Assembly (NCBI GenBank): GCA_020428645.1
Contig: JAGQMN010000002.1
Location: 36-64,035, forward strand
From: Patescibacteria group bacterium
Lineage (GTDB): Bacteria > Patescibacteriota > Minisyncoccia > Phycocordibacterales > UBA1006
Reading direction: 5' to 3'
DNA length: 64,000 nt
Positions 9,729-62,100 of the stretch are shown here, piece by piece. The notes under the pieces were generated by a model that was not told where the DNA came from, ran no database searches, and saw only the letters and a program-made list of their open reading frames with translations. The position numbers were made by a program, and so were the translations under genes. Within the stretch, counting starts at the first letter, position 1. Each line of letters starts with the position of its first letter.

Positions 9729-10178
9729 CTATTCGTTGATGAGTTTATTCACCTCTTCTTTGGCATCTTGGTGTGCCTTGCCGAGCATTGCTTCACCCTT
9801 ATCAATAGCAGCATCAATTGTGTCGTGTGCTTTGTCAGTCACCTCAGCTACTTTTTTGGCAATTTTCTTTGCATGTTTTTTGACGGCATTAGTGGTCTCA
9901 ACAATATCTTCGTCCATACGCTCTGCTTCGATGTGTTCTTCTTCAGCGAGTCTCTGCGGGAATACTCGTTTTACAATCAATACCGCAACAAAAACATAGA
10001 GGATTCCAAAGAACAGACTGCTAATAAATCCAAGTCCAATAATCCTAAGCAAGTACGCAAACACGTGCATATCGATGCCGAGAACGAGCCCAACTCCGGA
10101 GCTTGCAATATCAATCGCCACGAGTACCTTTACCCAATCAACCCAATTTTTTGTCTGTAATTCTTTCCAGTAATTCAT
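9729..10178 (-). CDS. hypothetical membrane protein
   Basis: 149 aa with two or three TM helices and an acidic/basic helical tail. Confidence 0.4.
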   Translation of the reverse strand: MNYWKELQTKNWVDWVKVLVAIDIASSGVGLVLGIDMHVFAYLLRIIGLGFISSLFFGILYVFVAVLIVKRVFPQRLAEEEHIEAERMDEDIVETTNAVKKHAKKIAKKVAEVTDKAHDTIDAAIDKGEAMLGKAHQDAKEEVNKLINE

Positions 10179-12676: not shown

Positions 12677-12690
12677 GATTGCAAGCAATC
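12677..12690 (-). promoter_or_regulatory. small hairpin immediately 3' of the VR (candidate DGR target-recognition element)
   Basis: GATTG-CAAG-CAATC (5-bp stem, 4-nt loop), 7 nt beyond the VR end and overlapping the stop codon. Absent at the equivalent TR flank. Confidence 0.45.
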
Positions 12691-13642
12691 AAGATTCCTG
12701 CGGAAGGAAGAACGAGGCGGAGCCATACCCCGCGTACACAGGCGAAACCGAGAGGGTGCCAGCCAAGACCTTGCCATCGACGAAGACCAGAAACGGAGCG
12801 AGATCGAAGGACTCGTCCGATGGGGAATCTTTGAATTCATCCCCCGGGCAGTCAATCCACAGGTCATCGTAGTGTCGAAGACGATCGGCGTGCAGTAACA
12901 CTGCAACCAACGCCTCGAACCAACCCACGCCAAATTCATCAACGCGGAACACCTCACGAGCGCGACGTATCGAACGTCCAGCGTGACGAAGACCAAACTG
13001 CATCCATACGATTTTGATTTCGCCCTCCTGGGATGTTGATACTTCATCAAACATCGAGGTCGAGCGTGCGGATTTCTTCAGCTGGTCAGCTCCGAGCTGA
13101 CCAGCACGAAGGTTTTCAAACTTTCCTTTACGATCTTTGTTCAATAACTCCATGGCACGCTCTACTGCTGCACCGTAAGTGTCAGCGACCAAGTTCCATG
13201 GGACAACGAGCGTCCAACGTCCAGCAACTCCATTCGGTGGGGTTACCTCACCAGATGCGATACGTGCCAGATATTTACGGTCAACGTCCAGCTTTCTCAA
13301 TTCAGGGAAGAGCTTCTTGAGGGTTACTAATTCCTTTTCGAGGTCGGCAATGTTTTCAAACAAGGTGAAATCATCACCCTCTCGGTAACCGGAAAGGTAG
13401 CCGTACGTGGACGTTACCTCTTCAGATTCGTACTTGTTCGAGATCGTCAGGTCGGCAATGATCATCATACTGGCCTCTTCTAATCGGGTTTTAAATTCAG
13501 CCCCGTCGCCGAGGATACCAGTTTGAGTACCGTCTTTGGAGGGGCTTACCTTTCGTATTGCATTCTTCACCGCTTGCGTGGCGAGAATTACAACAGCGTC
13601 TGTTTGTTTAGACGTGATCAACGCTTCTTTTCTTGTTGTCAT
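12689..13642 (-). CDS. DGR target (variable) protein; the C-terminal ~38 aa are encoded by the VR
   Basis: 317-aa ORF whose last codons (FDLAPFLVFVDGKVLAGTLSVSPVYAGYGSASFFLPQES) overlap the VR. I could not see an N-terminal signal peptide or TM helix. Confidence 0.85.
   Translation of the reverse strand: MTTRKEALITSKQTDAVVILATQAVKNAIRKVSPSKDGTQTGILGDGAEFKTRLEEASMMIIADLTISNKYESEEVTSTYGYLSGYREGDDFTLFENIADLEKELVTLKKLFPELRKLDVDRKYLARIASGEVTPPNGVAGRWTLVVPWNLVADTYGAAVERAMELLNKDRKGKFENLRAGQLGADQLKKSARSTSMFDEVSTSQEGEIKIVWMQFGLRHAGRSIRRAREVFRVDEFGVGWFEALVAVLLHADRLRHYDDLWIDCPGDEFKDSPSDESFDLAPFLVFVDGKVLAGTLSVSPVYAGYGSASFFLPQES
12698..12809 (-). repeat. DGR variable repeat (VR) at the 3' end of the target gene
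   Basis: 16 of the 23 TR adenine positions are substituted here with mixed bases. There is one non-adenine mismatch (12804) at the 5' boundary. Confidence 0.9.
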
Positions 13643-13699: not shown

Positions 13700-13754
13700 T
13701 ATGAGACGAGCTCTGTACCGTCAACACTGTTCACTCCACAGAGCTCGTCTCATA
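13700..13754 (-). promoter_or_regulatory. 16-bp perfect inverted repeat in the leader/promoter region of the DGR target gene
   Basis: TATGAGACGAGCTCTG (13700-13715) pairs with CAGAGCTCGTCTCATA (13739-13754) across a 23-nt spacer. About 58 nt upstream of the target ATG and downstream of the rpoD terminator hairpin (~13843-13862). Confidence 0.5.
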
Positions 13755-29092: not shown

Positions 29093-29638
29093 ATGACAAC
29101 TATAGTCCAAGTAGGAAAAAAAGTGCTCCGCATGAAAGCACAAGAAGTACCAAAAGATGCTATTGCCTCGCCCGAAATACAGGGTGTGATAGCGCGTATG
29201 AACGAAGCGCTCGCCACCCAAAATGATGGGGTTGCTATTGCCGCACCACAAATTGGTGAATCCTATCGTATCTTTACGATTTCACCTGTTGTATTTGAAG
29301 AACCTGGTGATTACCATTTGGTCTACATCAATCCTGAAATAATGGAGGTGTCTAAGAAAACAAAGCTCTTGAATGAAGGGTGCCTCTCGTGTCGTTGGAA
29401 AATTGGCGATGTAGAAAGACACCTAACGGCAACGGTTCGGGCATATGACGAATATGGTAACCAATTTACTGAATCAGCTGACGGACTCCTCGCACATATT
29501 TTCCAACACGAAACCGATCACCTTGATGGTATTCTCTTTATCGACAAAGCAGAAAATCTGCGCGATATGACTGAGGAAGAAATTAATGAGGTACTCCAAG
29601 AAAATGCATCCCCACGGTACGACCAAATTAAAGACTAA
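29093..29638 (+). CDS. def: peptide deformylase
   Basis: 181 aa from the ATG at 29093: GVAIAAPQIG, EGCLS, HETDHLDG. The track ORF starting at 28937 is an upstream extension that overlaps hisS. Confidence 0.93.
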   Translation: MTTIVQVGKKVLRMKAQEVPKDAIASPEIQGVIARMNEALATQNDGVAIAAPQIGESYRIFTISPVVFEEPGDYHLVYINPEIMEVSKKTKLLNEGCLSCRWKIGDVERHLTATVRAYDEYGNQFTESADGLLAHIFQHETDHLDGILFIDKAENLRDMTEEEINEVLQENASPRYDQIKD

Positions 29639-29650
29639 CAGAAAAAAATA

Positions 29651-29679
29651 AAAACCACAGCCAAATGGCTGTGGTTTTT
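29651..29679 (+). terminator. intrinsic terminator after def
   Basis: AAAACCACAGCC-AAAT-GGCTGTGGTTTTT. Confidence 0.8.
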
Positions 29680-29752
29680 ATTGAACATGTCACAAACTAA
29701 ATTATGCTATGTGAACATATTTATACGTCATAACATAGTGGTATGAAATAAT

Positions 29753-29855
29753 TAAGAGAGGTTCTCTGTCATTCAGCGACAGATCGGGCGATGATACTTC
29801 ATCTAAGTATCATCGCCCGAATCCGGGACTGAATAGAATACCTCGTGTATCTATT
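29753..29855 (+). repeat. island end motif, copy 1 (TAAGAGAGGTTCT plus hairpins)
   Basis: TAAGAGAGGTTCTCTGTCATTCAGCGACAGATCGGG-[hairpin 29785-29819]-CCCGAATCC. Same architecture as 31119 and, inverted, 35528. Confidence 0.7.
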
Positions 29856-30019
29856 TTCTTCCTCCCCTCACTTTTACTAGACAGCAAAAGTGAGGGGATA
29901 AAAAAGTCGAATTTTACCTGACTGGATGGTATTCAACAAGACCATAACCTATTTAATTAAGATGCTCATCCCGAAGGATTCCCGAAATGGCTTTGCCATT
30001 TCGGGACCTAAACCTAGGT
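29856..30019 (-). repeat. island junction module J1
   Basis: Read on the minus strand: stop, 18-nt palindrome, hairpin 29980-30006, CCUUCGGG 29968-29979, degenerate AT hairpin, TTTTTTAT, variable hairpin 29864-29897, AGGAAGAA. Confidence 0.6.
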
Positions 30020-30415
30020 TTAGGATTTTTTTAACTTCGCTCCCCAACTATCAGCGAGGTTCTCTAGGGTTGGATCTTTTTTCTCTGATTTTTTAAAAAA
30101 ATCTTTCCCTACGGCAACCTCCTGGTCAGGACAATCTCTCTCGTTTACAAAACGAGAGGCAATCTCTTCTGCCCAGCCTAAGGGTGCAATGAGGAGTTTC
30201 CAACCCTCGCTTCCAGAACCTCCATACGTAGTAGTCTCCGATAAAATTCTAAGATTATTATCAGAATGAACAGAGAAAGCTGGCCATCTTTTTGCTCCGG
30301 ATCCCGGTCTATACTCTTGAACCAGGACAAGTTCTTGATTACAAGAACTTTTTTCATCAATTTCTCTCAAAAAGATTTTATCTTCTGAGGAAATGAAAAC
30401 ATTAGCAGCATACAC
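30020..30415 (-). CDS. hypothetical protein (island gene A)
   Basis: 131-aa ORF with a GTG start (uncertain). No recognisable family. Lies between the intact def and the displaced def 3' fragment. Confidence 0.45.
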   Translation of the reverse strand: MYAANVFISSEDKIFLREIDEKSSCNQELVLVQEYRPGSGAKRWPAFSVHSDNNLRILSETTTYGGSGSEGWKLLIAPLGWAEEIASRFVNERDCPDQEVAVGKDFFKKSEKKDPTLENLADSWGAKLKKS

Positions 30416-30453
30416 ATATCCCTCACTCTTATTGGAGGTTGCGAGATGGTTTT

Positions 30454-30546
30454 GATCACCTCGACGGTGTATTGTTCATCGACAAAGCACGTAAATTACG
30501 CGACATGACTGATGAAGAAATTAATGAGGTTTTACAGAAAAAATAG
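30454..30546 (+). pseudogene. displaced 3' fragment of a peptide deformylase gene
   Basis: Translates to DHLDGVLFIDKARKLRDMTDEEINEVLQKK*, which parallels def residues DHLDGILFIDKAENLRDMTEEEINEVLQEN (29516-29605). By eye about four fifths of nucleotides are identical. No 5' part is present. Confidence 0.85.
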
Positions 30547-30547
30547 T

Positions 30548-30995
30548 ATGGAAAAATTCAACGACAATCAAAAAAAAAGAGAAAGAGCCTGAGTTCGATG
30601 AGTTTCCAAAAGAATTTGGTAGATACTATCATGGTTCACCGCATAACGTAGAGGAATTATTAAGTCCAAAAGAAAGCGGAAATATTAGACCTGGTGAGGA
30701 AGTGAGACGATCTTTTAAGGATGTAGTATTTCTCACTAAGGATATACAACAAGCGGTACAATATGCTGGTCCTGGTGGAGTAGTCTACCATGTAGATGCT
30801 GACGCAGTCCGGTACAAAGACATTGCTGCTACATATCTCAATCCTAAAAAACTAAAATCAGTGAGCGAAAATATTTATGTTGCAAAACCTGAAGATATCG
30901 AAATGGTAGTCAAGTGGGTAAAGCAAGCAAATAGAAGAAAAAATGAACCTGAAAAGTATGTGGATTACTATGTTAAGAAATCACCTGAGCGATAG
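30548..30995 (+). pseudogene. frameshifted small gene (island gene F) with a YHGSP motif; broken or slippage-dependent at an A9 tract
   Basis: The ATG at 30548 opens a 14-codon frame that stops at 30590. The long frame (open from 30528, ending at 30995) has no ATG/GTG/TTG before 30702. Losing one A from the A9 run at 30570-30578 fuses the two into about 149 aa. Confidence 0.6.
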
Positions 30996-31052
30996 TAGAC
31001 CAACGTATTTATTGTGTCGATTTTTACTCAAAGTCATAAACAATTAACGAGG

Positions 31053-31092
31053 ACTCGTCTCCTATCAAACTTTTGTTTAAGTGGAGACGAGT
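31053..31092. terminator. hairpin between gene F and end motif copy 2
   Basis: ACTCGTCTCC-(20 nt)-GGAGACGAGT, a 10-bp stem. No clean T-run, so terminator function is tentative. Confidence 0.4.
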
Positions 31093-31118
31093 ACCAGCTA
31101 TAGTAACTAATACTTCAA

Positions 31119-31232
31119 TAAGAGAGGTTCTCTGTCATTCAATGACAGGTCGGGTGGTAATCATGATATGTAATCATGATTACCACCCGAATTTGTAATT
31201 CAATAATATTCTCACTTATATGCACAGAAACG
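31119..31232 (+). repeat. island end motif, copy 2
   Basis: TAAGAGAGGTTCTCTGTCATTCAATGACAGGTCGGG-[hairpin 31151-31189]-CCCGAATTT. The flanks are identical to copy 1, while the internal hairpin has a different sequence and is still fully paired. Confidence 0.7.
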
Positions 31233-31335
31233 TTCTTCCTCCGACACCACTTCTCTTCTTAACTTATGAAAAGAAGTGGTGTCGGATAAAAAAGGCAATT
31301 TTTTGAAGAAATTGCCAGAAAACTTTATGCACTAA
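31233..31335 (-). repeat. island junction module J2
   Basis: Minus sense: stop, AAAGTTTTCT, hairpin GGCAATTT/AAATTGCC (31294-31316), TTTTTTAT, variable hairpin 31241-31285, AGGAAGAA. Confidence 0.6.
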
Positions 31336-32382
31336 TTAAGAATTTAAAAATTTTTCCATTATAATTTCTGCTTCGTAATCATCATCCAAATTCTTGTCAC
31401 AAAAATCATATCTTTGTGTTGTTTGTAAATTACGATAAAAAAACTTTTCTCTTTCTTCTAAAGACATTTCTTTGAAGAAATTCATTATAGGATTATTTTT
31501 TAATTGCTTATAATGATCCTGCAACTTTTTTTCAAGTTTTTTCATTTCTGATAAAATTTTTTTCATTGTAACAATGTCATATTCTGAGTGTTTTACTGGT
31601 TGTTTTTTTAAACACCTCGTCACACGTTTATTGCCTGATGATTCGCGATATCCATCAGGCATCGAAGAGGGGTCAGAGACAAGAATATCTTCACTTGCTC
31701 TTAATACCCATTTATTACCTTCAAACACAGCAGCACAACCCCAAGAAATTTTGAATAGCTCTTTATTGTGGTATTTTCTAAATTTCTCAAAAACCTTTGG
31801 TTTTTGAGGTACAATTGTTGTATTGTTTAGAAACGCGCTGATGATGACCTCTGTTGGAAAATTAAACTTAAGTAGACTACTTATTTTCCGGGTGGTGAAG
31901 TCAGACGAGCAAAAACTTCTATTCAAAGATTTATATCTTTTGATAATAGCCCTTCTTGTACGAATCACATCTTTATTCGGTTTGAATTGATGGATATGTC
32001 CATATGTTAACTGTAATTCTTCTTTTTTAAGATTATTACAATAAACTTGAAAATCTATTTGTTCTTTTGATAAAGTCTTCCTTAAAGACTCTGATCTAGC
32101 ATATAGAAAATCTATGGCTTCTTTTTTGCTTATTCTTTTCAAATACACAACTGGATGCACTTTGTCTGGATACTTGATTGCTCTTTTCTCCAAATCAATA
32201 CAAGAGCTTTCAGCTCCACTTAAAATTTTATAAGCCTCCTCCACATAAGAGAGATAGTATTCTGCATATTGATAATTTTCAACTCTGTCATCTTCATTAA
32301 ATGAATAATAAGGAGTATGAATTACCTTTACATTAATTTTATTTTCCTTTCTGTGAATAAGGAATGAACTATTTTTTGACAT
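31336..32382 (-). CDS. hypothetical protein (island gene B), very AT-rich
   Basis: 348-aa ORF with no recognisable motifs. Confidence 0.55.
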   Translation of the reverse strand: MSKNSSFLIHRKENKINVKVIHTPYYSFNEDDRVENYQYAEYYLSYVEEAYKILSGAESSCIDLEKRAIKYPDKVHPVVYLKRISKKEAIDFLYARSESLRKTLSKEQIDFQVYCNNLKKEELQLTYGHIHQFKPNKDVIRTRRAIIKRYKSLNRSFCSSDFTTRKISSLLKFNFPTEVIISAFLNNTTIVPQKPKVFEKFRKYHNKELFKISWGCAAVFEGNKWVLRASEDILVSDPSSMPDGYRESSGNKRVTRCLKKQPVKHSEYDIVTMKKILSEMKKLEKKLQDHYKQLKNNPIMNFFKEMSLEEREKFFYRNLQTTQRYDFCDKNLDDDYEAEIIMEKFLNS

Positions 32383-32389
32383 AATTTAT

Positions 32390-32445
32390 ATATTTAAACG
32401 TTAGCCAAAACTTCCATCAGAAAGCCAAAGCTAACGTTTAAATAT
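32390..32445 (-). promoter_or_regulatory. start-proximal leader hairpin of gene B
   Basis: 16-bp perfect stem ATATTTAAACGTTAGC/GCTAACGTTTAAATAT with a 24-nt loop that begins TTTGG on the minus strand. Ends 7 nt before the ATG. Confidence 0.6.
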
Positions 32446-32638
32446 GATCATGAAATATTTTCTACAGGCAGGTTTTGCCGTTGGCAAAACCTGCCTGATA
32501 AAAAAGATAATGTTTTGTTTTTAGGCTCCATTATCAAAAGACCTTTATATAATATTTACTCCACACCACGTGGAAATTTTATTTCCCCGAAGGGTTAGCA
32601 TTCTTGGAAACCAATCCAAGAATGCTATTTTAGAAACA
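32446..32638 (-). repeat. island junction module J3
   Basis: Minus sense: stop, hairpin 32596-32627 (loop TTGGTT), CCCUUCGGGG 32585-32594, GATAATG/CATTATC hairpin, TTTTTTAT, variable hairpin 32465-32497, TAGAAAAT. Confidence 0.6.
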
Positions 32639-33463
32639 CTATGATTGCGTTCCACCAGCAAAACCCCGGTTCGGATTCCCGTAAGTATCCGAAATTCCGA
32701 GATCCGCAGCATTATCTAAAAATGCTTGAACGGTGGCTGCGTCACCGTTTAGCATTACCTTCTGCTCAAATCCTGGACGTGAGTCCACGTGAGCGAGAAA
32801 GCTTTTACCGGTCATGGTGCCGGCCTCTACCATAAATGGTAGAGCTCCATTTTTGCGGAAATCAGGAACCTCCTGATCCCCAACGGTAATGGTTGCCGTT
32901 GGATTTTCCAAAAGCGCTACGCACTTTTGGATTTCCTTTTTCGCTTCGTCTTCGCTTACGCGTTGACGAGCACATAGTTCGGGCAAACGAATTGCCAGAA
33001 CTTCCTCGGGCGTTACCCCAGGGCACTCGCCCTGGTACGCCGCGCCGAGGCAGTGATCAGCTGCAGCAATCACTCGCTGCTTTTGATCCAGTTGCAGACC
33101 AAGCAAGTCTGCAACCTGCCCCAGTGAGCTCCCTGCCTCAAAATCGGCAGGGGTAGCCGCAAACCCGGGGTCTCCAGGTTTGTGGTGGTCAACCACGATT
33201 TTTTCCTGCTTGATAGAATAACTATCAGCAGGGGTACACTCGATCAGAACCATCTGATCAAATGCGTCCACCTCGATTTCTTCTCCATTTTTGGAGATAA
33301 TTGAAGTGAATTTCCCGGCAGTGTCGGGGAAACACCGTTTAGTATTTCCTTCCCTGTCGGGTGCCGCGGCATAACCAACGGCAATATTTTTTTGTGCAAG
33401 CAATGCTTCTATTGCTTGCATTTCGATGTCGTTAGCACCGAGGATAAAAATTTGATTGCTCAT
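32639..33463 (-). CDS. hypothetical protein (island gene C), possible DHH-like phosphoesterase; visibly higher G+C than its neighbours
   Basis: 274 aa. VVDHHKPGDPG resembles DHH motif III, and there are N-terminal ILGANDIEM and C-terminal FAGG motifs. Assignment is weak. Confidence 0.55.
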   Translation of the reverse strand: MSNQIFILGANDIEMQAIEALLAQKNIAVGYAAAPDREGNTKRCFPDTAGKFTSIISKNGEEIEVDAFDQMVLIECTPADSYSIKQEKIVVDHHKPGDPGFAATPADFEAGSSLGQVADLLGLQLDQKQRVIAAADHCLGAAYQGECPGVTPEEVLAIRLPELCARQRVSEDEAKKEIQKCVALLENPTATITVGDQEVPDFRKNGALPFMVEAGTMTGKSFLAHVDSRPGFEQKVMLNGDAATVQAFLDNAADLGISDTYGNPNRGFAGGTQS

Positions 33464-33777
33464 ATTTTTATACTCTGCTGGGACAGAGATTCTATTTATT
33501 CCCAGAATTACTGAATTTTTTGCGGAGAATTACAGTCATGCTCCGTCTCGCTATCTGCCACGCTGGTGTCCCCACCTTTTGCAGAAATGTTATGCGTGGT
33601 ACTTGGCTGCGCCGTTCCTCGCGAGATTTTCTATGAGTTTTCTACCGAGATTGCTTTGCTTTCGCTCGCAATGACACGGTACAAAACTCAATAAAAAAGT
33701 CGATTTTTGAAAAGAATCGACAGAAACTTTTTAACCAATCTGAAACCATAGGCACCATACCTGCGGTTTCAAAAAAA
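33464..33777 (-). repeat. island junction module J4 plus a GC-rich structured leader of gene C
   Basis: Minus sense: stop, hairpin, TGGTTAAAAAGTTTCT, hairpin 33699-33721, TTTTTTATT, long hairpin 33635-33689, ATAGAAAAT, then nested helices CTCGC/GCGAG (33547-51 with 33621-25), CCACGC/GCGTGG (33558-63 with 33594-99) and GGTG-TCCC-CACC (33565-76). Confidence 0.55.
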
Positions 33778-34509
33778 CTAAGATTCCCAAATTAACTCTG
33801 GAATCAAAACTCCAGAGTGACGAATCAGAAAAATAATATCCTCTACCATTTTGAGAGGGTATTTTTTTCTTAACTCCATTTCATAATACTCCAGGGCTGT
33901 TTCCAGCCCATATTCTCTTTCAAGATTTTCAAAAAAATCTGAATTCAGAGTATCCCCCTCACCCTTACCAGAAATAAGGTCTTGGTAAGATACCCCTACT
34001 TCCTTTAATCTCTCTCGAGCCTCAAAGAAAAATAAAATAGTTTTCTTTTCTTCTTCGCTCGTTTTAAGGATCTCAAGATAATCCTCGAGATCCTTTGAAC
34101 GCCCCTCCGCTAAAAGGGCTTTTTCTTTCTTATGTCGTATTGCAAACTCACGACTGCAATACGCTGGATTTTTTTGATCAGCTTCTGGTAGCTGATCATT
34201 TACGAGAATATCAACGACCCTTTGGTCGTCTTTTCCTAATAGAAGTCCCGCGTCGAGGACCTCTGTCCATTTCATAAACCCCGAAGGACTCTCGAGGTGT
34301 TTGGTTGTGGATCCATCCTGAAAGTCCATCGTGGCTATCAGGATCTTTTTTATTTTTTCCATGTCCTTGGTCGAGGACACTATCACGTCAACGTCTCTTA
34401 TCTCCCTCGAGATAAGATTGTGTTTTTTAAGAACCATAGAACCTACGATTCTTAAATTTATTTTTTTTGAAATGTTTTCCAACATCTCAGTAATTTTGAT
34501 ATTTTTCAT
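33778..34509 (-). CDS. Pol-beta superfamily nucleotidyltransferase-domain protein (island gene D)
   Basis: 243 aa. RIVGSMVLKKHNLISREIRDVDVIV fits the hG[GS]-x(9-13)-DhD NTase signature. Helical C-terminal half. Confidence 0.6.
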   Translation of the reverse strand: MKNIKITEMLENISKKINLRIVGSMVLKKHNLISREIRDVDVIVSSTKDMEKIKKILIATMDFQDGSTTKHLESPSGFMKWTEVLDAGLLLGKDDQRVVDILVNDQLPEADQKNPAYCSREFAIRHKKEKALLAEGRSKDLEDYLEILKTSEEEKKTILFFFEARERLKEVGVSYQDLISGKGEGDTLNSDFFENLEREYGLETALEYYEMELRKKYPLKMVEDIIFLIRHSGVLIPELIWES

Positions 34510-34516
34510 GGTTTTA

Positions 34517-34567
34517 ATTTTAAAGTTACCTAAAATCTCTAACAGAGACCAAAGGTAACCTTAAAAT
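34517..34567 (-). promoter_or_regulatory. start-proximal leader hairpin of gene D
   Basis: 14-bp stem (one mismatch) ATTTTAAAGTTACC/GGTAACCTTAAAAT with a 23-nt loop that begins TTTGG on the minus strand. Ends 7 nt before the ATG. Confidence 0.6.
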
Positions 34568-34720
34568 AATACTTATGAAAATATTTCAGGTTTTCTTCCT
34601 TCGGTGGATTTTACTACATAAAACCCACCGAATAAAAAAGTCGATTTTTGAAAAGAATCGACGGAACTTTTTAACCATTCCCCGAAGGGAACCCAAGCCA
34701 GCGACCAAGCTGGCTTGGGT
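34568..34720 (-). repeat. island junction module J5
   Basis: Minus sense: stop, hairpin 34691-34720 (loop TTGGTC), CCCUUCGGGG 34680-34689, TGGTTAAAAAGTTCC, hairpin 34640-34662, TTTTTTATT, variable hairpin 34601-34631, AAGGAAGAA. 34632-34677 is near-identical to 33691-33737. Confidence 0.65.
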
Positions 34721-34957
34721 CTATTGCCAGAATTTCCATGTTTCTATGCTATTTCTAATCTGGCGTATTTCCTCTCTGGTAAGTTCCTCTACCGAGGAAC
34801 TTGTTTGAATGGATTTGATCATGTTAAAGAAGTTTTGAACTTCTTTAACTTCATCGATCAGACGACATTTCGCCTGAAAACTCTACTTCCCTTTCTCTGA
34901 AAGGGATTCCACTAGATGCTGGTTGCATCTTTCTAATTCTTGTTTTAAATTTCCCAT
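34721..34957 (-). pseudogene. small helical ORF (island gene E) interrupted by an in-frame TAG
   Basis: Own translation: MGNLKQELERCNQHLVESLSEKGK*SFQAKCRLIDEVKEVQNFFNMIKSIQTSSSVEELTREEIRQIRNSIETWKFWQ*. The amber codon at 34883-34885 is in frame with the ATG at 34957 and the stop at 34721. Confidence 0.4.
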
Positions 34958-34961
34958 TTTA

Positions 34962-35048
34962 CTTGTTTTGGTGAACTTTGGTTTCTTACTCAGATTCTGA
35001 ATCAAGTCCAGAATGATAAACCAAAAAACCAAAGTTCACCAAAACAAG
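34962..35048 (-). promoter_or_regulatory. start-proximal 23-bp perfect inverted repeat upstream of gene E
   Basis: CTTGTTTTGGTGAACTTTGGTTT (34962-34984) pairs with AAACCAAAGTTCACCAAAACAAG (35026-35048). The 41-nt loop begins TTTGG on the minus strand. Ends 4 nt before the ATG. Confidence 0.6.
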
Positions 35049-35515
35049 ATAAATATGAAAAGCTCTCTTGAAATTTCCAAATCATTTGGGATTCCAAGAG
35101 AGTGTGACGTAGTCAAATGTATGATGTTGTTTGACTACCTCCCACTCTCTTTCAAGAGTTTGTGTCCAGCGGTAGTTCATACTTCTGCTGCGCGTGTTGT
35201 TCGCCCGTCGTCAAAGTATGATCTACGTGGTATGAAATTATTAAGGTACCATCCTTTCTTCACCTCTCTTACATTAGCAACCCGAGATTCTGAAGCTGTC
35301 TGCCCTTAGGTAGGACGATGTCAGAATGACGAGCGACTTGGTAAAGAAATTTCTGGAGACGAAGGTGGTTAGTCTTCCCCGTCCAGCAGATTTCTTTATC
35401 AATCTGTCTTTATCAGATATCCACCAGTGACGAGTTCCGGTCGTGTGGTAGATTCTGAATGGAACGGTTGGTGTGCCCTCAGCGCCGTTTGCACCAACCC
35501 CGTATTGATTTGCAA
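35049..35515 (-). other. ORF-free region rich in paired segments (candidate large ncRNA or element-end structure); strand uncertain
   Basis: No ORF of 60 aa or more that I trust. There are many nested inverted repeats, e.g. CTCTCTTGAAA/TTCCAAGAGAG, GAGAGTG/CACTCTC enclosing GTAGTCAAA/TTTGACTAC, and GGTTGGTG/CACCAACC. Confidence 0.35.
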
Positions 35516-35528
35516 AGAACCTCTCTTA
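35430..35528 (-). repeat. island end motif, inverted copy
   Basis: The reverse complement reads TAAGAGAGGTTCTTTGCAAATCAATACGGGGTTGGTG...CACCAACCGTTCCATTCAGAATCTACC. Its 13-nt terminus matches 29753 and 31119, followed by the same CGGG-hairpin-CCG layout. Confidence 0.6.
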
Positions 35529-35691
35529 GTCTCGTACATATCGTAGCATGTGCTTGACATAGTGTCAATACAGTGTGACCATATTTTACAAACTATGAAT
35601 AATATTATGACATTGTATTAAAAAATATTGATTTTCAATACGATTTAGTCATGTGCTTGTGACATTTTAAATCTTTTGGTACTATACCAGT

Positions 35692-36459
35692 ATGGAAAAT
35701 ACGCAAACCATACAACAGCTAGAGACCTTAGGACTCTCTCGTGAACAATCACTGGTATACCTCTGCCTGCTCGATAACGGGTTTAGCAAGGCTGGTAGCA
35801 TACCGAAAAAGACAGGTTTGAAACGGGGTTTGGTGTATAAAGTTCTCGATCAGCTCATTGAACGCGGGCTTGCCAAAAAACACGGGGAAGATACTGCGGT
35901 TGCACGCTTTGCCCCACTCTCTCCTGAAGGATTAAAATCACTCGTGGAAGAGAAACTTCGAGCTGCTGAAGCACACCAGGAACTCTTTAAGGATCTCTAC
36001 AGCCCACTTAAATCTAAATTCAATCTGTTAACGGGACGGCCAAGTGTACGGTACTACGAGGGTCACGATGAGGTTCGAGAGATGCTTTACGACTGTCTCG
36101 AAACAACAGGCGTCATCTACACCTACGCTGATGCCGACATGGTAGCCGAACACTTTCCTGATTTAAATAAGGAACATATTGCCGAAAGGCATGAACGCGG
36201 TATCGCAAAGAGAATTCTTGTTGCAGACAGCAAACACGGTCGACAGACCAAGAAGGACTCGCTGAAAGACGATCTAACCGACATACGGATTATCGAAAAA
36301 GAATATCTCCCCTTTAGCGCCGTTGCAGAAATATACGACAATAAAGTTGCCTATATTACCTCATCAGATATTGGAATATCTGGGGTATTGATTGAAGATC
36401 GACAAATTGCCACCATGCAAAAATTTATGTTTGAAGCTCTGTGGGAGCAATCACAATAG
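35692..36459 (+). CDS. TrmB-family transcriptional regulator
   Basis: 255 aa with an N-terminal winged helix (LETLGLSREQSLVYLCLLDNGFSKAGSIPKKTGLKRGLVYKVLDQLIERGL) and a TrmB-type C-terminal domain. Confidence 0.75.
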   Translation: MENTQTIQQLETLGLSREQSLVYLCLLDNGFSKAGSIPKKTGLKRGLVYKVLDQLIERGLAKKHGEDTAVARFAPLSPEGLKSLVEEKLRAAEAHQELFKDLYSPLKSKFNLLTGRPSVRYYEGHDEVREMLYDCLETTGVIYTYADADMVAEHFPDLNKEHIAERHERGIAKRILVADSKHGRQTKKDSLKDDLTDIRIIEKEYLPFSAVAEIYDNKVAYITSSDIGISGVLIEDRQIATMQKFMFEALWEQSQ

Positions 36460-36492
36460 CAACAACATTCCCGTTTCTCAAAAAAACAAGCA

Positions 36493-39114
36493 CTATTCTG
36501 CTTGTTTTTCGTCAGGGTTAAGTTCTCGTTTATGCTCTAACACAACATAGTGCTTTCCTGTTGTATTATCAGTAAAGGAATGTGTCATAACGCCATGTTC
36601 CAATTGTGATCTATCAAAATCACGAGGATTATCGAGCACTAGAATATCAATACCTTTGGCGGTACTATATTCACCACTTCTAATTCCTTCTCGGGTAAAA
36701 CTCCGAGATAAGTAGCTGGTGTTTGCTTGATTATCCCAAACCAAATTAAGTGCATGAACACCTTCATACTTTGCAGCGGAAACAGCAACGAATCCCATGT
36801 CCAAGTATCGAGAACAAGCACTACCTGACATGTTTGCTTCAGCGTGTAGTACGTGTTCGTGAGCTTCTTTGGTTAATGCCTGAGCAATCATCGCCTCTCC
36901 TAATGCGTAGCCTTGAGATTCTTTTGCTACGTTTAACGCGCTGGCAAATTTACTTCCGTCTGGATTTGATTCAAAACGAATAAACGCATTAAGTTCATTA
37001 TTGATGCGATAAGTATAAAATTCACTATTGGTTTTGCTTTGAAAAGCTGTAGTAAATTGATTGATGAGTATGTGTCTCGTTTGGGGATCATACTGTTTAT
37101 TGTTTTCAGTATAGATCTCCAACATCTCCATCTGTTCCGGGATAGAGATGTCAGCGATATTTTTATGTTGAAACTCGGAACCCTTAATATCCTCTAACGT
37201 TAAATCAAAACCAAGTTTTCGAGCAAATTTAAAAGTAGAGAGTGTTGCTATAGCATCAGCAGAAATCTTCGATAATTCATTTTCAATAAGATGAACGGTG
37301 TCTAGTGTATCTGTTTCTTTGAGTGCATCGATGCGATTATAAAAAATATTTAATACGCTCACGCCTTTTTGTAGAATATTATCACAAACCCGGTCGATGA
37401 TTTCTGGATCATCTGCAATCTCATGAGAAAATTCTGATGTAATAAATGCCTCTATCCCCTTGGTTGCATCCACCAGTTCTGAATATTTAGTAAAAATAGC
37501 GTTTGCTGATTCTGAGGGAAGCTTTTCTGCAAGATCAAGAATTTTTTGACTCATTTCTGACCCACCAATATCAAGAGAAAGAAAAGCGCGTAAAATATTG
37601 TTACTATTCAAATCTTCATTTTTTAAGATAGTTTCAAGGGTGTTCCATTCATTTTGTTTTGTACCAGCTAGATAGTCGAGAAATTGTACCTGTTCATCAA
37701 GATACATTTCCCTCACATCAACACCAAACTCATGTTTGATTATCCATCTTACTTCAGGTGTATGCATAGATGAGATTAAACCAGCGTCTTTATTTTTAAT
37801 AACCTCGTTATACGGTGCGGGATGCACCGTAATTCTATTCTTCAATTTTTCATGAAGATATTTTTTCATGACAAAATAATCAAGTGATAATAACTCTTTC
37901 TTCTTTTTTTGAAATTGTTGAGCAATTTCTGGACTCTGATTTTTAATGTTCCAATCACAATAATCCAATCGATCACGGAGAAAAAATGAAAAATCAGTCT
38001 CATTGAGTTCATCTACATTTTTTCCTAAACCCTTACTTTCTTGCAAAAACGAGAGGAGGTCTTGATAGGTATGGTCATATACTTCGGCATTAACCCCTTC
38101 GAAAAAAACATTATTATTTTGAGTTCGGTAATCTTGAGAGACAAACAACCCAAAGGAAGATTGTAAACCATTAGAAAGGGAAAAATAATCTTTGGACACC
38201 TGTTGGATCCCTGCTGATCGATAGAAAGGGGAATTTAAATTTTCAACATAGTATCGAGTAGCGTTTTCTAAATGTTCATTATTGTTCGTGGTTATATTAT
38301 CATAATGACTATGTAAAAATTCACTTACCTCTCCGGTTTCCTCTTGTTTTTCTAAATCTTCAATGAGATGTAAATTGTAGTCAGCAAGTAAGTTTAATAA
38401 GGGTAGATTAAACTCTTCTTTGATACAGTGAATTATTTCAATACCTTTTAGATATGCATGGTGTGCACTCTCGTAACCTACACTCTGTGCATCAAGAGTA
38501 ATTCTTGCAATCGTTTTTAAAAAAATAATCTTTTTTTCATCTGAAAGAGATTGTACATAGTGTTTTATAGAATCACTAAGAGAATTTTCATATTCGAAAG
38601 ATATATTATAAACAACTTCTCCTGTGGTATGGTAGACAAGATTGTCCATACATCCAGAATTATTCATCTCCCCTAAAGCCAAAAAATAATTATTAACATC
38701 ATACGAAAGAAGTGGGGCAAGAATATTTGGACTACGCCCAAAAAAGTTTTCCTTAACAAATTGAATAAAATCATCTTTTTTTGATATTTCTATTTCTTGA
38801 GAGTAAAAAATTTCTTCTAGCTTATCTCTTAACAAGAGAACAAACTCATGGGTAAGGTCTGAGACTTCTTTTGTGACCAAATGATCTTCAGGACCACTCC
38901 CAAGTAGCGTTTTCATTTTTCGTTCAATGGGATTGGAAAAATACTTATTATCCCCATCAAGAGATCCAGACAAAAGAGTATCAAAGTAATCTTGGGTAAA
39001 TGTTCTGAATTCAGTTTTAATGTCTTCAAAATTTTCAATATGCTCTTTCACTTCAGGATTGACATTATTAAATTCTTTTTTCGTATTATCTTTTTTATAA
39101 GCCTCAGGATTCAT
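36493..39114 (-). CDS. large hypothetical protein with a probable C-terminal GNAT acetyltransferase domain
   Basis: 873 aa. The last ~170 aa carry a GNAT motif-A-like ESQGYALGEAM in a beta-alpha context. The N-terminal ~650 aa have no recognisable family. Confidence 0.5.
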   Translation of the reverse strand: MNPEAYKKDNTKKEFNNVNPEVKEHIENFEDIKTEFRTFTQDYFDTLLSGSLDGDNKYFSNPIERKMKTLLGSGPEDHLVTKEVSDLTHEFVLLLRDKLEEIFYSQEIEISKKDDFIQFVKENFFGRSPNILAPLLSYDVNNYFLALGEMNNSGCMDNLVYHTTGEVVYNISFEYENSLSDSIKHYVQSLSDEKKIIFLKTIARITLDAQSVGYESAHHAYLKGIEIIHCIKEEFNLPLLNLLADYNLHLIEDLEKQEETGEVSEFLHSHYDNITTNNNEHLENATRYYVENLNSPFYRSAGIQQVSKDYFSLSNGLQSSFGLFVSQDYRTQNNNVFFEGVNAEVYDHTYQDLLSFLQESKGLGKNVDELNETDFSFFLRDRLDYCDWNIKNQSPEIAQQFQKKKKELLSLDYFVMKKYLHEKLKNRITVHPAPYNEVIKNKDAGLISSMHTPEVRWIIKHEFGVDVREMYLDEQVQFLDYLAGTKQNEWNTLETILKNEDLNSNNILRAFLSLDIGGSEMSQKILDLAEKLPSESANAIFTKYSELVDATKGIEAFITSEFSHEIADDPEIIDRVCDNILQKGVSVLNIFYNRIDALKETDTLDTVHLIENELSKISADAIATLSTFKFARKLGFDLTLEDIKGSEFQHKNIADISIPEQMEMLEIYTENNKQYDPQTRHILINQFTTAFQSKTNSEFYTYRINNELNAFIRFESNPDGSKFASALNVAKESQGYALGEAMIAQALTKEAHEHVLHAEANMSGSACSRYLDMGFVAVSAAKYEGVHALNLVWDNQANTSYLSRSFTREGIRSGEYSTAKGIDILVLDNPRDFDRSQLEHGVMTHSFTDNTTGKHYVVLEHKRELNPDEKQAE

Positions 39115-39287
39115 TGCTGCAATGATAGCATAAATTTAAAGCAATATAAATATAAATGTGTCAAAATACGAGATAGGTGGGACAAAAAATAATTAAAAGT
39201 GGTAGTGTCTTAAGCATTAGGTGTTCGAGACAAAAATGAATAAATTAAAAGAAAACTAAAAACACACCAACGTGGTGTGTTTTTAAT

Positions 39288-52551: not shown

Positions 52552-53019
52552 TTATTCATCTTCATCAAAACCAGCAAGTTCAATTTTTTCAATACGACGG
52601 AGATGACGTTCCTCATCAGAAAACGGAATTTCAAGCCAAAATAGTACAGATTCAAGAACTTCTTCGTTCGACAAAAACCGTGAACCAATAGACAACATAT
52701 TCGCATTATTGTCTTCACGTGAGAGTTTAATGATTTCAGGATCAAAGTGATAGTATGCTGTTGCTCGTACATTTGGATACCGGTTAGCTGCCATGGCTTC
52801 ACCTTGTCCTGATCCACCAAATATTACTGCCCGATCCTCAGGATTTTGCGAAATTTCGCTAGCCGCAAGACCAATAAAATCCGGATAATCATCACCTTCT
52901 TCGTACTCAAAAGCACCATAATCGATAATAGTGTAACCGAGTTCTTCAAGTGCTGACTTGATAAATTCTTTCATTTCAAAACCAGCATGGTCAGTTGCCA
53001 GGTGAATCGTAAAATCCAT
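52552..53019 (-). CDS. rpiB: ribose-5-phosphate isomerase B
   Basis: 155 aa: ATDHAGFEMK, GGSGQGEAMAANR. Confidence 0.9.
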   Translation of the reverse strand: MDFTIHLATDHAGFEMKEFIKSALEELGYTIIDYGAFEYEEGDDYPDFIGLAASEISQNPEDRAVIFGGSGQGEAMAANRYPNVRATAYYHFDPEIIKLSREDNNANMLSIGSRFLSNEEVLESVLFWLEIPFSDEERHLRRIEKIELAGFDEDE

Positions 53020-58602: not shown

Positions 58603-59115
58603 TTATTTTTGTGAGTGTATGAGTTTATCTCGTAACTCTTCTAATTCATTTTCTTGTGCTCTCGGTCCACCACCTGAAGAAATCCACCCTTCGTAGGTAT
58701 CAAACCAGAATTCTTTACCTGAGAGGTGCTGTTTCCACTCTCCTCTCTTGAGGTGTTCAGTACCATGCATCGGAAACAGTTTAATATGGGCGTGATCAAT
58801 GCCCGTTCCCTCCATCATGACACCGACGCGACCAACATCATCAAAATAATTTTCTAGTATCCGTGTTACCTTTTTTGAAGCAATAATGAAATCCCGAAGT
58901 ACATCATCTGGCATCTTCATTACGTCACTGCCAAAGTGTTTTTTGGGTATAACACAACTAAATCCTTTAGTATTAGGATCAATCGACAAAAATGCCATAA
59001 AGTGATCATCCTCCCAAAAAATTCCAGGGGTTTTTAATCGCCTAGTCACAATTTCACAGAATGGGCATGCATGTTCTTTTGTTGTTGGTTCGTAGTGTGT
59101 CATATTATTTTTCAA
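58603..59115 (-). CDS. HIT family hydrolase
   Basis: 170 aa: CPFCEI and the histidine triad context GIDHAHIKLFPMHG. Confidence 0.75.
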   Translation of the reverse strand: MKNNMTHYEPTTKEHACPFCEIVTRRLKTPGIFWEDDHFMAFLSIDPNTKGFSCVIPKKHFGSDVMKMPDDVLRDFIIASKKVTRILENYFDDVGRVGVMMEGTGIDHAHIKLFPMHGTEHLKRGEWKQHLSGKEFWFDTYEGWISSGGGPRAQENELEELRDKLIHSQK

Positions 59116-62100
59116 ATAAATTCAATTGCTCCTTGGTTCGAGGTCCACGCAACACCTCCAAAAATTCCAAAAGCTCACGATTTGTCGAATCTTTATATAC
59201 ATCTCCGTCTAAGAGTGTTCCATCGAGTACCCGTTCGGCGAGTTCGTTAATTAACACACGTACCTCGTCCACATCCGATTGATCAATTTCAAATCGTGCT
59301 TGTTCATACTCACCCTTGGTATTTGGTTCAATAAAATCAAACACTGCAGTGTGGAAATTATATTTACCATCGAATGCCTGCTGAAGCAGAAGTTTATAGA
59401 ATGCTGCCTGGCGTTTTGTTTTTGCCTTGCGATCTTTATCCATGTCTGAATACGTTTTTCCTGTTTTGTAATCCCAAACGATAATTTCACCCTTATCGTT
59501 CATGGTAATTTTATCAACGACTCCGGTGAGCTTGATCGTGATTCCGTTATCGAGTTCGAACGGTATTACCGGAATACGTTTTTCAGTGTATGTAGGCACA
59601 ACAAAATCTGTGTGCTGATTATCAAAATAATTACTGAGTACACCCCATGCACGTTCACGATACTCTTCATAGGTGTGGTTTCTCGAGAGTACCAATGCAA
59701 ACGAAGACTCAAGTACATCTTTTCCTTGAATCGCATGCGCATCAATACAGGTGTTAAAGTAGTGTTCCAATGTTTCATGCACTACGTTTCCAAATTCTAA
59801 AAACGGAGAACGAGCTTCAGGGAGGTGGACTAAATTTCTGAAAAAGTATTTAAGTGGTGATTCAACGTAATTATTCAACGCTGATACCGAGAGTGTATTG
59901 CTTAGAAACTGCTCGCGTACATAATCAGGATCAATGAGCGACACGATGTGTTCCTGTGATTGACCAAAGAAATCTGCTACGTTTTCAGTATGTTCTTTCT
60001 CCCAGGATGACATATCAATGTGGGATACTGATTCCATCTCGTTAATATGAAGTGATCGGTTTTTCTCACGACCTTCCTCGTCATACACATAACTACTGAC
60101 AAAACAATTTTTGCGAGTACGGGTAAGTGCCACGTAAAAGAGACGGCGTTCGTCTTCAATATCCCCATCACTAAATTCATCAAACGGCAGGGTAATATCG
60201 CGCGCTACTTTTTTCTTTGCGAGTGCTTTGACAACATAGACAGTGTCGAATTCGAGCCCTTTTGAACCGTGAAAGGTTAGGAGATTCACTCCATCAGAGA
60301 GCGTGTTCGTAATATTCATCGTAATACCATGCTGTTTCATAGTATTGAGATATGTAATCAGATCATCAAGGACAAAACTTTCTCGTCCACTTGTTTCCTT
60401 TTTGATTTCATCAAAAAGTTTTTCAAGTTTGTGAATAGCGAGTACTGATTGCTGTTGTGACAATAGGTAGGTCAAACAACCACTCTCCCGAACAAAATCA
60501 GAGAAAAAACCAAGTGCGTCAGTTGCCTCTGATTGTTGCTTTTGATTTTTGATCATATCCACAAATTCGGCGTACCGAGGTAAGCGTTCCTCGAGAATAC
60601 CCGCCTCCTGTAGTTTCTCAGGGGTTTCGAGAATCGTCATAATCGCACTATGGTAGTCACCACGAGCGTTACGTGATTTTTGAAGGATACGCTCTACATC
60701 AAACACATCAAACCCAAGAAAATCAATAAACAATGTTTTTGCGAGGGCTTCGTTATCAGACGGATCATGAACTGTACGCAAGAGGTAAAACAACTTTTGA
60801 AGGTCGGAATCCTTAAGAATATTTTTCTTCGAGAAATCTTTGTAACGAATACTATAGACATCAAAAATTCTGCGGATGTCTTCAGCATCAGCATTGTTTC
60901 GATAGAGGACGGCAATTTCGTTTGGATTCTCGCCATTTTCTATACGTGATTTAATATCCTGTGCAAGCCACAGTACCTCCATTTTGTGATCATTAAATTC
61001 TCGGTACTCAACGACACCGTTATGATCAAAAAATGCTTTGAGCAGTGCCTCATCACTATGGTGTGGTGATGAGGTAATGACCTCATGTGCGTGCTCAAGA
61101 ACCTCTTGATGTGATCGATAGTTCTCGGTCAGGTTAATAATCACAGGATCAGAGACAAGACCTAACAGTCGGGTGTAGGATTCTTCGCTCGCACCGGCAA
61201 ATCGAAAAATTGCCTGTTTTCTATCACCCACTACAAAGAGATTTGGTTTGCCTTCTGATACCGGATTATCAATCAAGTGTTGGATAATCGTATTCTGTGC
61301 ATCGTTGGTATCCTGGTGTTCATCAACGAGAATATACTGAAACTGTTCTTGGAGTTCGGCTTTCAAAACTGAATCTGGTTTTCCAAGTTCGTGTACAAAA
61401 CGAATAATCACATCATCAAAATCGTATAATCCCTGTGATCGTAATTGTTGTTGGTACTCTTCGTAGATATCTGCGAGTTCAAGGTTTTTATTCTTGCGCT
61501 CTTCGAGTTTGCGTTGTTCACCTGGTTTAATGTCGCCCGCCTTAAATTCCTTGTACACGCGTTTGTAACGAATATCATCACTCGCCATATCTCGTTCAAA
61601 GGTTTCTATTGTGTGTGTCCGGAACTCGTCCGGTGTCATTCCCTCTTCTTTGATTTTTCCAAGAGCAAAGACGATCGAACGTAGAGTACTCTCTCGCCGT
61701 TTAAATACAGAAAAATAGTGTGTACCGTGACTGTCAGCAATGGTTTCAATGAGTTCAATCTGTTCAACGGGTGAAATCAGTCGTGACCCAAACGGAGTAT
61801 CAAAGAGATCCTGGTACCGTTTCATCATATCCTCGGCAAAGGCATGGAAGGTACTGATGTATACACGGTGAGCTGCCTCGGGACCTGTAATGGTCGCAAG
61901 GCGTTCACGCATGTTGTAGGCAGCAGTATTCGTAAAGGTGAGCGCAAGAATATTTTCCGGCTCTACGTCAGTTTGCTTGAGAATGTTGGCGATACGAAGC
62001 GTGAGAATTTGGGTTTTTCCAGTTCCAGGACCTGCCATAACAAAGACTGGTCCATCGATGGTGTCGACAGCCTGTTTCTGTTGCGGATTGAGTCGATCGT

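Follow-up and report, generated by a model that had tools for sequence, protein, structure and literature searches.

The DNA analysed here, referred to as the window, is a stretch of 64,000 nucleotides of contig JAGQMN010000002.1 from a Patescibacteria group bacterium. The subject of this work is a set of three long hairpins, H1, H2 and H3, which precede gene B, gene D and the remnant of gene E in an island located after def, the peptide deformylase gene. A fourth copy, L006, was found in another metagenome. Folded as RNA, each hairpin is part of a longer rod that includes the start codon of the following open reading frame (ORF). The main features at the locus, with the minimum free energy (MFE) of the rods, are:

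29639–39287, strain-specific island of about 9.6 kb inserted after def; relatives have the order def-DoxX/fmt
31336–32382, minus strand, gene B, 348 amino acids, an orphan
33778–34509, minus strand, gene D, 243 amino acids, with P0002 as its sole homologue (52% identity)
34883–34957, minus strand, gene E remnant, an ORF of 24 codons followed by out-of-frame ORF pieces to about 34721
32380–32452, minus strand, leader rod H1 of gene B, MFE −29.6 kcal/mol, z −7.4, 5 G.U pairs
34503–34581, minus strand, leader rod H2 of gene D, MFE −28.7 kcal/mol, z −6.0
34951–35061, minus strand, leader rod H3 of the gene E remnant, MFE −52.6 kcal/mol, z −7.7, 6 G.U pairs

An earlier note on this DNA had described the three as long perfect hairpins, ending 4–7 nt 5' of the start codons and with loops starting with TTTGG. 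An exhaustive hairpin scan bore out the sizes and coordinates given for H1 (a perfect 16-bp stem with a 24-nt loop, 32390–32445) and H3 (a perfect 23-bp stem with a 41-nt loop, 34962–35048). H2 was recovered at 34517–34567, with a 14-bp stem and a 23-nt loop, when wobble pairs were allowed; its coordinates and dimensions hold, but the stem is not perfect, containing one G.T pair on the coding strand (A.C on the other strand). The distances to the ATGs, which are located at 32382, 34509 and 34957 on the minus strand, were measured as 7, 7 and 4 nt. On the coding strand all three loops do start with TTTGG, and each contains a small hairpin; no other strong hairpin within the 64 kb has such a loop. 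None of 200 shuffled sequences was as stable as the natural ones. These inverted repeats are real and non-random, and their first description is partly wrong. As for the genes named as their targets, B and D stand, whereas “gene E” is a 24-codon ORF that is probably a decayed gene. The frameshifts in gene E are not assembly errors, since independent assemblies covering the region are identical.

On the coding strand each element folds into one rod, consisting of a basal helix P0, a helix P1, an internal loop, a helix P2 and an apical loop. P0, of 6–8 bp, joins a UUUCAU located upstream to the AUG and the nucleotides next to it. P1 has 15–17 bp, or 27 bp in H3; between it and P2 lies a symmetric internal loop, UU/UU, with G.U pairs on its sides. 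P2 has 7–8 bp, the first two of which are G.U or G-C, and is closed by an apical loop of 3–5 nt. What had been called the loop is mostly paired as RNA: TTTGG represents the closing U of the last P1 pair, the UU of the internal loop and the first two pairs, G.U, of the P2 helix. The stem is perfect or has a single wobble over 14–23 bp of P1, and the only break is the UU/UU loop near the top. In the predicted fold P1, the UU/UU loop and P2 stack coaxially to the equivalent of 24–27 bp in H1, H2 and L006 and of about 40 bp in H3, a sense-strand helix of the length of RNase III substrates (about 20 bp or more). The total helix length is 30–48 bp.

In H1, P0 joins CAUGAU (32452–32447) to AUUAUG (32385–32380, start codon included), and a 17-bp P1 (32445–32429 with 32406–32390) leads through the UU/UU internal loop to a 7-bp P2 (32426–32420 with 32415–32409) with the apical loop UGAU. 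The P0 of H2 pairs UUUUCAU (34581–34575) with AUGAAAA (34509–34503) and is followed by a 7x7 internal loop, a P1 of 15 bp with one G.U pair (34567–34553 with 34531–34517), the UU/UU loop and a P2 of 7 bp with GUU as its apical loop. In H3, P0 is formed by UUUUCAU.UUUA and UAAAAUGGGAA, and P1 by 27 bp; the equivalent of TTTGG, TTTGGTTT, forms Watson-Crick pairs with AAACCAAA throughout, and the top of the rod is larger and contains an 8-bp helix.

The AUG is paired in the MFE folds of all four copies, and UUUCAU is conserved in each of them. The register of this pairing shifts with the gene, being CAUGAU/AUUAUG at gene B and UUUUCAU/AUGAAAA at gene D. The AUG has a calculated pairing probability of 0.86 at gene B and 0.95 at gene D, compared with a mean of 0.51 for core genes. 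Two properties of a start-codon-sequestering operator are seen in the predicted folds, namely an AUG paired in a stable fold and a helix backed by compensatory changes, the latter in P1 and P2.

Rfam offers no counterpart. At the gathering score only a tRNA passes in the window and the rods are unmatched, and at a relaxed threshold only generic microRNA-type hairpins match, far below their cut-offs. A self-cleaving ribozyme or a riboswitch was dropped as a candidate, there being no Rfam match. Nor do the rods resemble intrinsic terminators: they are AT-rich and have no U tract, and a terminator scan picks a different hairpin, hp1, instead.

All four known copies are homologous, and they originate from two lineages. 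Their alignment has a mean column identity of 61%, or 77% without H3. The claim that the stems are unrelated in sequence did not survive comparison: the 5' arms of H1 (ATTTAAACGTTAGC) and H2 (ATTTTAAGGTTACC) are identical at 11 of their 14 positions, with a compensating change in the 3' arm for each of the other three (A-U to U-A, C-G to G.U and G-C to C-G), and TTTTGGTGAACTTTGGTTT is common to the stems of H3 and L006. The L006 rod ends just before the ATG of P0002, the only homologue of gene D (52% amino acid identity), on a 921-bp contig from a different sample. Its P1 differs from that of H2 and equals part of the H3 stem.

In an alignment of H1, H2 and L006, 98.5% of the cells are paired and both sides have changed in 8 of the 23 pairs, a result reached by none of 500 shuffles. 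Slid-register controls with the same three sequences gave 29–62% paired. The wobble G34.U51 is kept in all three. A covariance model, R1, was built from these sequences with H3 left out, and it recovers H3 at 53.2 bits. When the window and 83 kb from relatives were searched with R1 no further copies were obtained. Within these sequences the rods are restricted to the island: the three copies in the window all lie in it, and the 83 kb from relatives contain none. Scans for exact patterns of the surrounding scaffold gave chance matches only (in genome contigs with CAAAAATCGACTTTTTTAT, and in viral contigs), the single outcome of a metagenome scan with GAGAGGTTCTCTGTCATTCA was the same genome, and the island DNA was unmatched in phage and plasmid collections.

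There is good evidence, although not proof, that the rods are an RNA-level cis element on the sense strand, since the distribution of G.U pairs, an RNA-specific stability gap, the strand scores of R1 and the terminators and UUCG hairpins on the same strand all point to it. The numbers of G.U pairs on the coding and the other strand are 5 and 1 in H1, 3 and 1 in H2, 6 and 0 in H3, and 5 and 1 in L006 (19 versus 3 in sum). With RNA parameters the MFE of the coding strand (listed above; −28.7 kcal/mol in L006) is better than that of the opposite strand (−18.9, −23.2, −40.7 and −14.7 kcal/mol for H1, H2, H3 and L006) by 10.7, 5.5, 11.9 and 14.0 kcal/mol, respectively. With DNA parameters the gap between the strands is only 1.2–3.6 kcal/mol, and H1 loses P0. 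R1 scores the coding strand at 97.7 bits and the opposite strand at 29.9 bits in H1, 81.2 versus 37.2 bits in H2, and 53–98 versus 28–37 bits overall. The coding strand also bears UUCG tetraloop hairpins and canonical terminators (hp1 and a U run).

The meaning of a paired start codon depends on how the host initiates translation. Its core genes have an extended −10 box (consensus TGGTATAAT) that ends 6–8 nt before the ATG. Of 45 core genes, 25 have a −10-like hexamer that ends 4–10 nt before the ATG (background 18%), and Shine-Dalgarno-like 4-mers are depleted upstream of the core genes (3 of 45; background 10%). With the −10 box directly before the ATG and the Shine-Dalgarno motif absent, the host core genes appear to be expressed as leaderless mRNAs. 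The earlier note was wrong to ascribe AT-rich, unstructured leaders to the core genes: most of them have no leader, TGGTATAAT being located 6–8 nt before the ATG. The island genes still stand out. Examples of leaderless-looking core genes are 9729–10178, 52552–53019 and 59105–62122, all on the minus strand. A separate 17-bp perfect hairpin with a 21-nt loop (13700–13754, minus strand) lies in the leader, of about 170 nt, of core gene 12689–13642, with a TTGACA...TGATAATAT promoter upstream. The TTTGG rods are no relatives of this hairpin, and at the gathering score Rfam has no match for it.

We propose, with middling confidence, that the rods are homologous cis-acting 5'-leader RNA elements that lock the AUG and are possibly opened by RNase III. 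In a host with mostly leaderless genes and free of Shine-Dalgarno sequences the start codon would be the sole initiation signal to hide, and the rod would hide it. Where ribosomes start on 5'-terminal AUGs without a Shine-Dalgarno sequence, a helix of 30–48 bp that pairs the AUG should block initiation. The full-length leader would then be translationally off, with its 5' side protected. A double-strand-specific cut would free the AUG, and RNase III is the candidate cutter, because the coaxial P1–P2 helix is about 24–27 bp long (about 40 in H3). Such a cut would leave an mRNA with a short leader, usable by leaderless-type ribosomes. We infer from this transcripts that start upstream of P0, blocked translation, and opening by RNase III or another factor.

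This scheme has precedents. In the cspA mRNA of Staphylococcus aureus, an RNase III cut in a long 5' hairpin raises stability and translation, and RNase III also yields leaderless mRNAs (PMC3386247). Bacteria of the candidate phyla radiation (CPR) keep RNase III, RNase J and YchF (PMC12641178). The earlier note had offered three options, a translational operator, a processing site and a DNA-level recombination site. The two RNA-level options are favoured here, whereas recombination fails the tests for attC sites and the island has no recognisable recombinase. The shared RNA-binding regulator that accompanied the operator option is not needed. The rods constitute a new and very small family of structured mRNA leaders, of a functional kind that is already known.

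RNase III-processed leaders such as that of S. aureus cspA (PMC3386247) resemble the rods in having a long irregular sense-strand helix with an internal loop just upstream of the coding region, the removal of which should expose the initiation region and yield an mRNA that is stable and can be translated. The rods differ in that the host is free of Shine-Dalgarno sequences and the AUG itself is hidden, that they are located in a CPR island among orphan genes, and that their cleavage is presumed. They also have no sequence similarity to any known RNase III-processed site. Other RNase III-processed leader hairpins are the early intercistronic R sites of phage T7 and that of Escherichia coli adhE. 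Hairpins that sequester the start codon or the ribosome binding site are exemplified by the MS2 replicase operator and the 5' structures of type I toxin mRNAs. The rods share with these a stable helix whose base includes the paired start codon, and a predicted default state of off. Unlike these, the rods have much longer helices (30–48 bp) and precede genes of 243–348 amino acids rather than small toxins.

Several points weigh against the proposed AUG lock. The four copies come from two lineages and are homologous, so the counts based on them are not independent. P0 is short and AT-rich, and the covariation result covers P1 and P2 only, the 3' side of P0 being unalignable. No core-type promoter was found between hp1 and P0, and rod-spanning transcription is presumed; the terminator hp1, 60–70 nt upstream of each rod, blurs the source of rod-containing transcripts. 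The 3' arm of H2 ends in TAAAAT, 7 nt before the ATG, a possible leaderless promoter whose RNA would be rodless. G.T wobbles would favour the same strand even in single-stranded DNA. Finally, we purely infer the cleavage of the rods by RNase III.

Other explanations can be offered at the RNA level and at the level of DNA binding. The rod might be a mere 5'-terminal stabiliser of the mRNA against RNase J, with the transcript starting at the base of P1 and the AUG pairing being incidental, which we consider unlikely. Stabilising stem-loops such as those of ompA and SP82 are likewise stable hairpins at or near the mRNA 5' end, but they are not known to pair with the start codon and give room to the ribosome binding site, whereas the rods lie only 4–7 nt from the AUG, a distance at which a 5' hairpin would hamper initiation anyway in a host that uses 5'-terminal AUGs. 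In our reading of the sequence, −10-like hexamers lie just 5' of P1 (AATATT in H1 and H2, CATATT in H3 and L006) and would place transcription starts near the P1 base. RNase J is kept in CPR bacteria (PMC12641178), and RNase J1 is blocked by 5' hairpins (PMC3386247). A stabiliser leaves the anti-AUG strand unexplained, however, since UUUCAU is conserved in all four copies and paired with the AUG in every fold, and for H3 and L006 a start set by the hexamer would fall within P1, at odds with the covariation of the lower P1 pairs. Very unlikely, in our view, is that the inverted repeats are DNA operators or cruciforms over leaderless island promoters and never become part of the RNA. Host promoters lie directly before the ATG, which makes −5 to −60 promoter space; in H2 the hexamer TAAAAT stands 7 nt ahead of the start codon, and the island has a gene for a TrmB-type regulator as its neighbour. 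The junctions of arm and loop (GTTAGCTTTGG / GTTACCTTTGG) are like a TAnnTTTG box in two of the four copies, and a promoter box of this Bacteroidetes type was rejected as it fits only those two. Yet genes B and E lack a −10 hexamer at a suitable distance, and in our own reading of the sequence so does the gene D homologue in L006. The arms differ among copies, so that no single sequence-specific repressor fits, and the arm centres are 37–40 bp apart by our own count. The conserved G.U pairs and the RNA-specific strand asymmetry would also be left unexplained.

The remaining explanations treat the rods as mobile or recombining DNA. They could be a miniature palindromic mobile repeat near genes, of the repetitive extragenic palindrome, miniature inverted-repeat transposable element or Correia type, co-transcribed and without an evolved function. 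The rods are indeed homologous repeats, their ends are inverted repeats and they lie in AT-rich intergenic DNA; the Correia elements of Neisseria are also RNase III substrates. The rods, however, occur as three copies in 64 kb, all in the island, in one orientation and 4–7 nt before an ATG, with none in the 83 kb from relatives; their divergence is compensated rather than decayed, and they sit in a larger conserved scaffold instead of at varied sites, which makes this origin quite unlikely. A recombinase encoded elsewhere might also exchange cassettes of an ORF and a rod, the rods being attC-like sites at the cassette boundaries. This agrees with the repeated ORF-plus-scaffold units of the island, with the hot spot after def and its three def 3' ends, and with an H3-type rod that precedes gene E here and the gene D homologue in L006, placing a reassortment breakpoint by the ATG. 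Integron attC sites are similarly hairpins of 50–90 nt between ORFs that end a few nt before the next ORF and conserve pairing above sequence, and the rod hairpins, at 51–87 nt, are within the attC range. None of the four properties of attC sites that were looked for was found, the integrase being looked for among the island ORFs. There is no RYYYAAC/GTTRRRY pair at the stem bases, that is, no R and L core boxes (ATATTTAAAC/GTTTAAATAT, ATTTTAAGG/CTTTAAAAT and CTTGTTTTGG/CCAAAACAAG, with no common 3' GTTRRRY); there is neither an unpaired central spacer nor an extrahelical, bulged base; it is the sense strand and not the bottom strand that folds better, in all four copies; and no integrase or other recombinase family is matched by any island ORF in Pfam, PHROGs or NCBIfam. 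Furthermore, the extra pairing is RNA-specific, each unit has its own terminator, unlike integron cassettes, and exchange inside a rod would leave mismatched arms. We regard recombination sites as quite improbable, and give very little credence to the specific version in which integron-like sites are folded from the sense strand and cassettes are exchanged at the rod ends beside def by an unrecognised recombinase, although such a system would explain the same rod type before different genes and the repeated units around orphan genes.

The island itself is strain-specific, since in four related genomes nothing separates def from the genes that come next, which are either DoxX, DUF378 and fmt or just fmt. 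The peptide deformylases closest to that of the window are from Paceibacteria. A displaced def 3' end (30454–30542), 938 bp downstream of the one at 29516–29604, is 78% identical to it over 89 nt, and a third variant is present in a sister strain (locus L050, 1250–1422). These three versions indicate that the site after def is a recombination hot spot, and mark a site-specific and apparently serial insertion of islands into the def end. Of the contigs with the island, three independent ones from metagenomes (L001, L003 and L004) stop at about 30932 and L051 at 30925, which points to strain heterogeneity or a repeat-induced assembly break in an ORF for a 97-amino-acid protein. A look-up of this protein gave matches only on short contigs (<900 bp).

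For gene B, no homologue was found in 5.8 billion clustered proteins or in an exhaustive search of 1.84 billion representatives. Genes A–D and the 97-amino-acid ORF had no match in Pfam, PHROGs or NCBIfam, genes B, C and D none in the PDB, and an 873-amino-acid protein had only a sub-threshold GNAT match in Pfam. The start position of gene D is shared with P0002, and the cluster of gene D is named hypothetical protein, Patescibacteria group bacterium. It contains a G-S...D-V-D-V stretch that may be nucleotidyltransferase-like; its AlphaFold2 model is poor (predicted local distance difference test, pLDDT, 52) and not usable for a fold search. Gene C has no rod. Upstream of it there is instead about 230 nt of DNA with higher GC (33464–33690, minus strand) containing TCATTGCGAGCGAAAGCAAAGCAATC, which suggests that gene C and its leader do not share their origin with the rest of the island.

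The rods are part of a repeated intergenic scaffold of the island. From the stop codon of the preceding gene it runs, in this order, through a unique hairpin (loop UUGGUY), a UUCG mini-hairpin, hp1 with UUUUUUAU, hp2 with its variable stem, AGGAAGAA, UUUCAU and the rod to the next AUG. The scaffold features are:

34632–34662, minus strand, terminator hp1 at the E–D junction, GTCGATTC..ATCGAC followed by TTTTTTAT; copies at 33691–33721 and 31286–31316
34601–34631, minus strand, hp2, of variable stem sequence, followed by AGGAAGAA; homologous in position at 32465–32497, 31240–31286 and 29863–29898
34680–34720, minus strand, 3' untranslated region module after gene E, a 12-bp hairpin with the loop UUGGUC and then a CCC-UUCG-GGG tetraloop hairpin; equivalents at 32585–32627 (gene C), 33742–33770 (gene D, hairpin only) and 29968–30006 (gene A)
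29784–29820, minus strand, hairpin in the place of a rod, with a perfect 16-bp stem and a 5-nt loop; a sister with 18 bp at 31150–31190

The UUCG mini-hairpins, of the CCC-TTCG-GGG type, number three (34680–34689, 32585–32594 and 29968–29979, minus strand), and the loops of the unique 3' hairpins of the island genes are TTGGTC, TTGGTT and TATGGTG. The sequence CCTTCGGG is found five times in the 64 kb, four times on the minus strand inside the island. Two scaffold copies, 29640–30020 and 30996–31338, have no ORF after them and carry the perfect hairpins with 5-nt loops in the rod position. Both of these hairpins are followed by CTGTCNNTGAATGACAG AGAACCTCTCTTA, and they keep the outer TCGGG/CCCGA, their inner stems being wholly different. 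A split ribosome binding site, in which a hairpin brings AGGAAGAA near the AUG, was rejected, this motif being some 30 nt away from the rod on its 5' side. A divergent small ORF or small RNA at the plus-strand ATGAAA beside the rods was likewise rejected, as by our reading these ORFs lack conservation and ATGAAA is simply what the anti-AUG strand gives as its complement.

On the plus strand, a core-type promoter box TGGTATGAA is present at 29739 and 35228, followed by AT(A/T)ATTAAG(A/G) and no start codon, and a conserved AAGAGAGGTTCTCTGTCATTCA is present at 29754 and 31120; the regions concerned (29739–29775, 31119–31141 and 35228–35252) have no Rfam match. These TGGTATGAA/AAGAGAGGTTCTCTGTCATTCA sites probably give rise to non-coding plus-strand RNAs that are antisense to the scaffolds of the island. 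A strong promoter on the minus strand, TTGACA-17-TACGAT (35568–35540), converges with the plus-strand TGGTATGAA at 35228. Transcripts from the two would overlap as sense and antisense by about 290 nt, within the long stretch of non-coding DNA upstream of what is left of gene E.

The reach of these findings is limited to four copies, all from uncultivated organisms. The rods nevertheless provide a covariation-supported RNA motif that can be tested in vitro, from a phylum in which almost no cis-regulatory RNAs have been described. If the proposed AUG lock is correct, translation would be gated by hiding the AUG itself in a long helix, in a bacterium without leaders or Shine-Dalgarno sequences. 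This suggests how horizontally acquired, possibly harmful genes may stay silent or get processed in a CPR genome.

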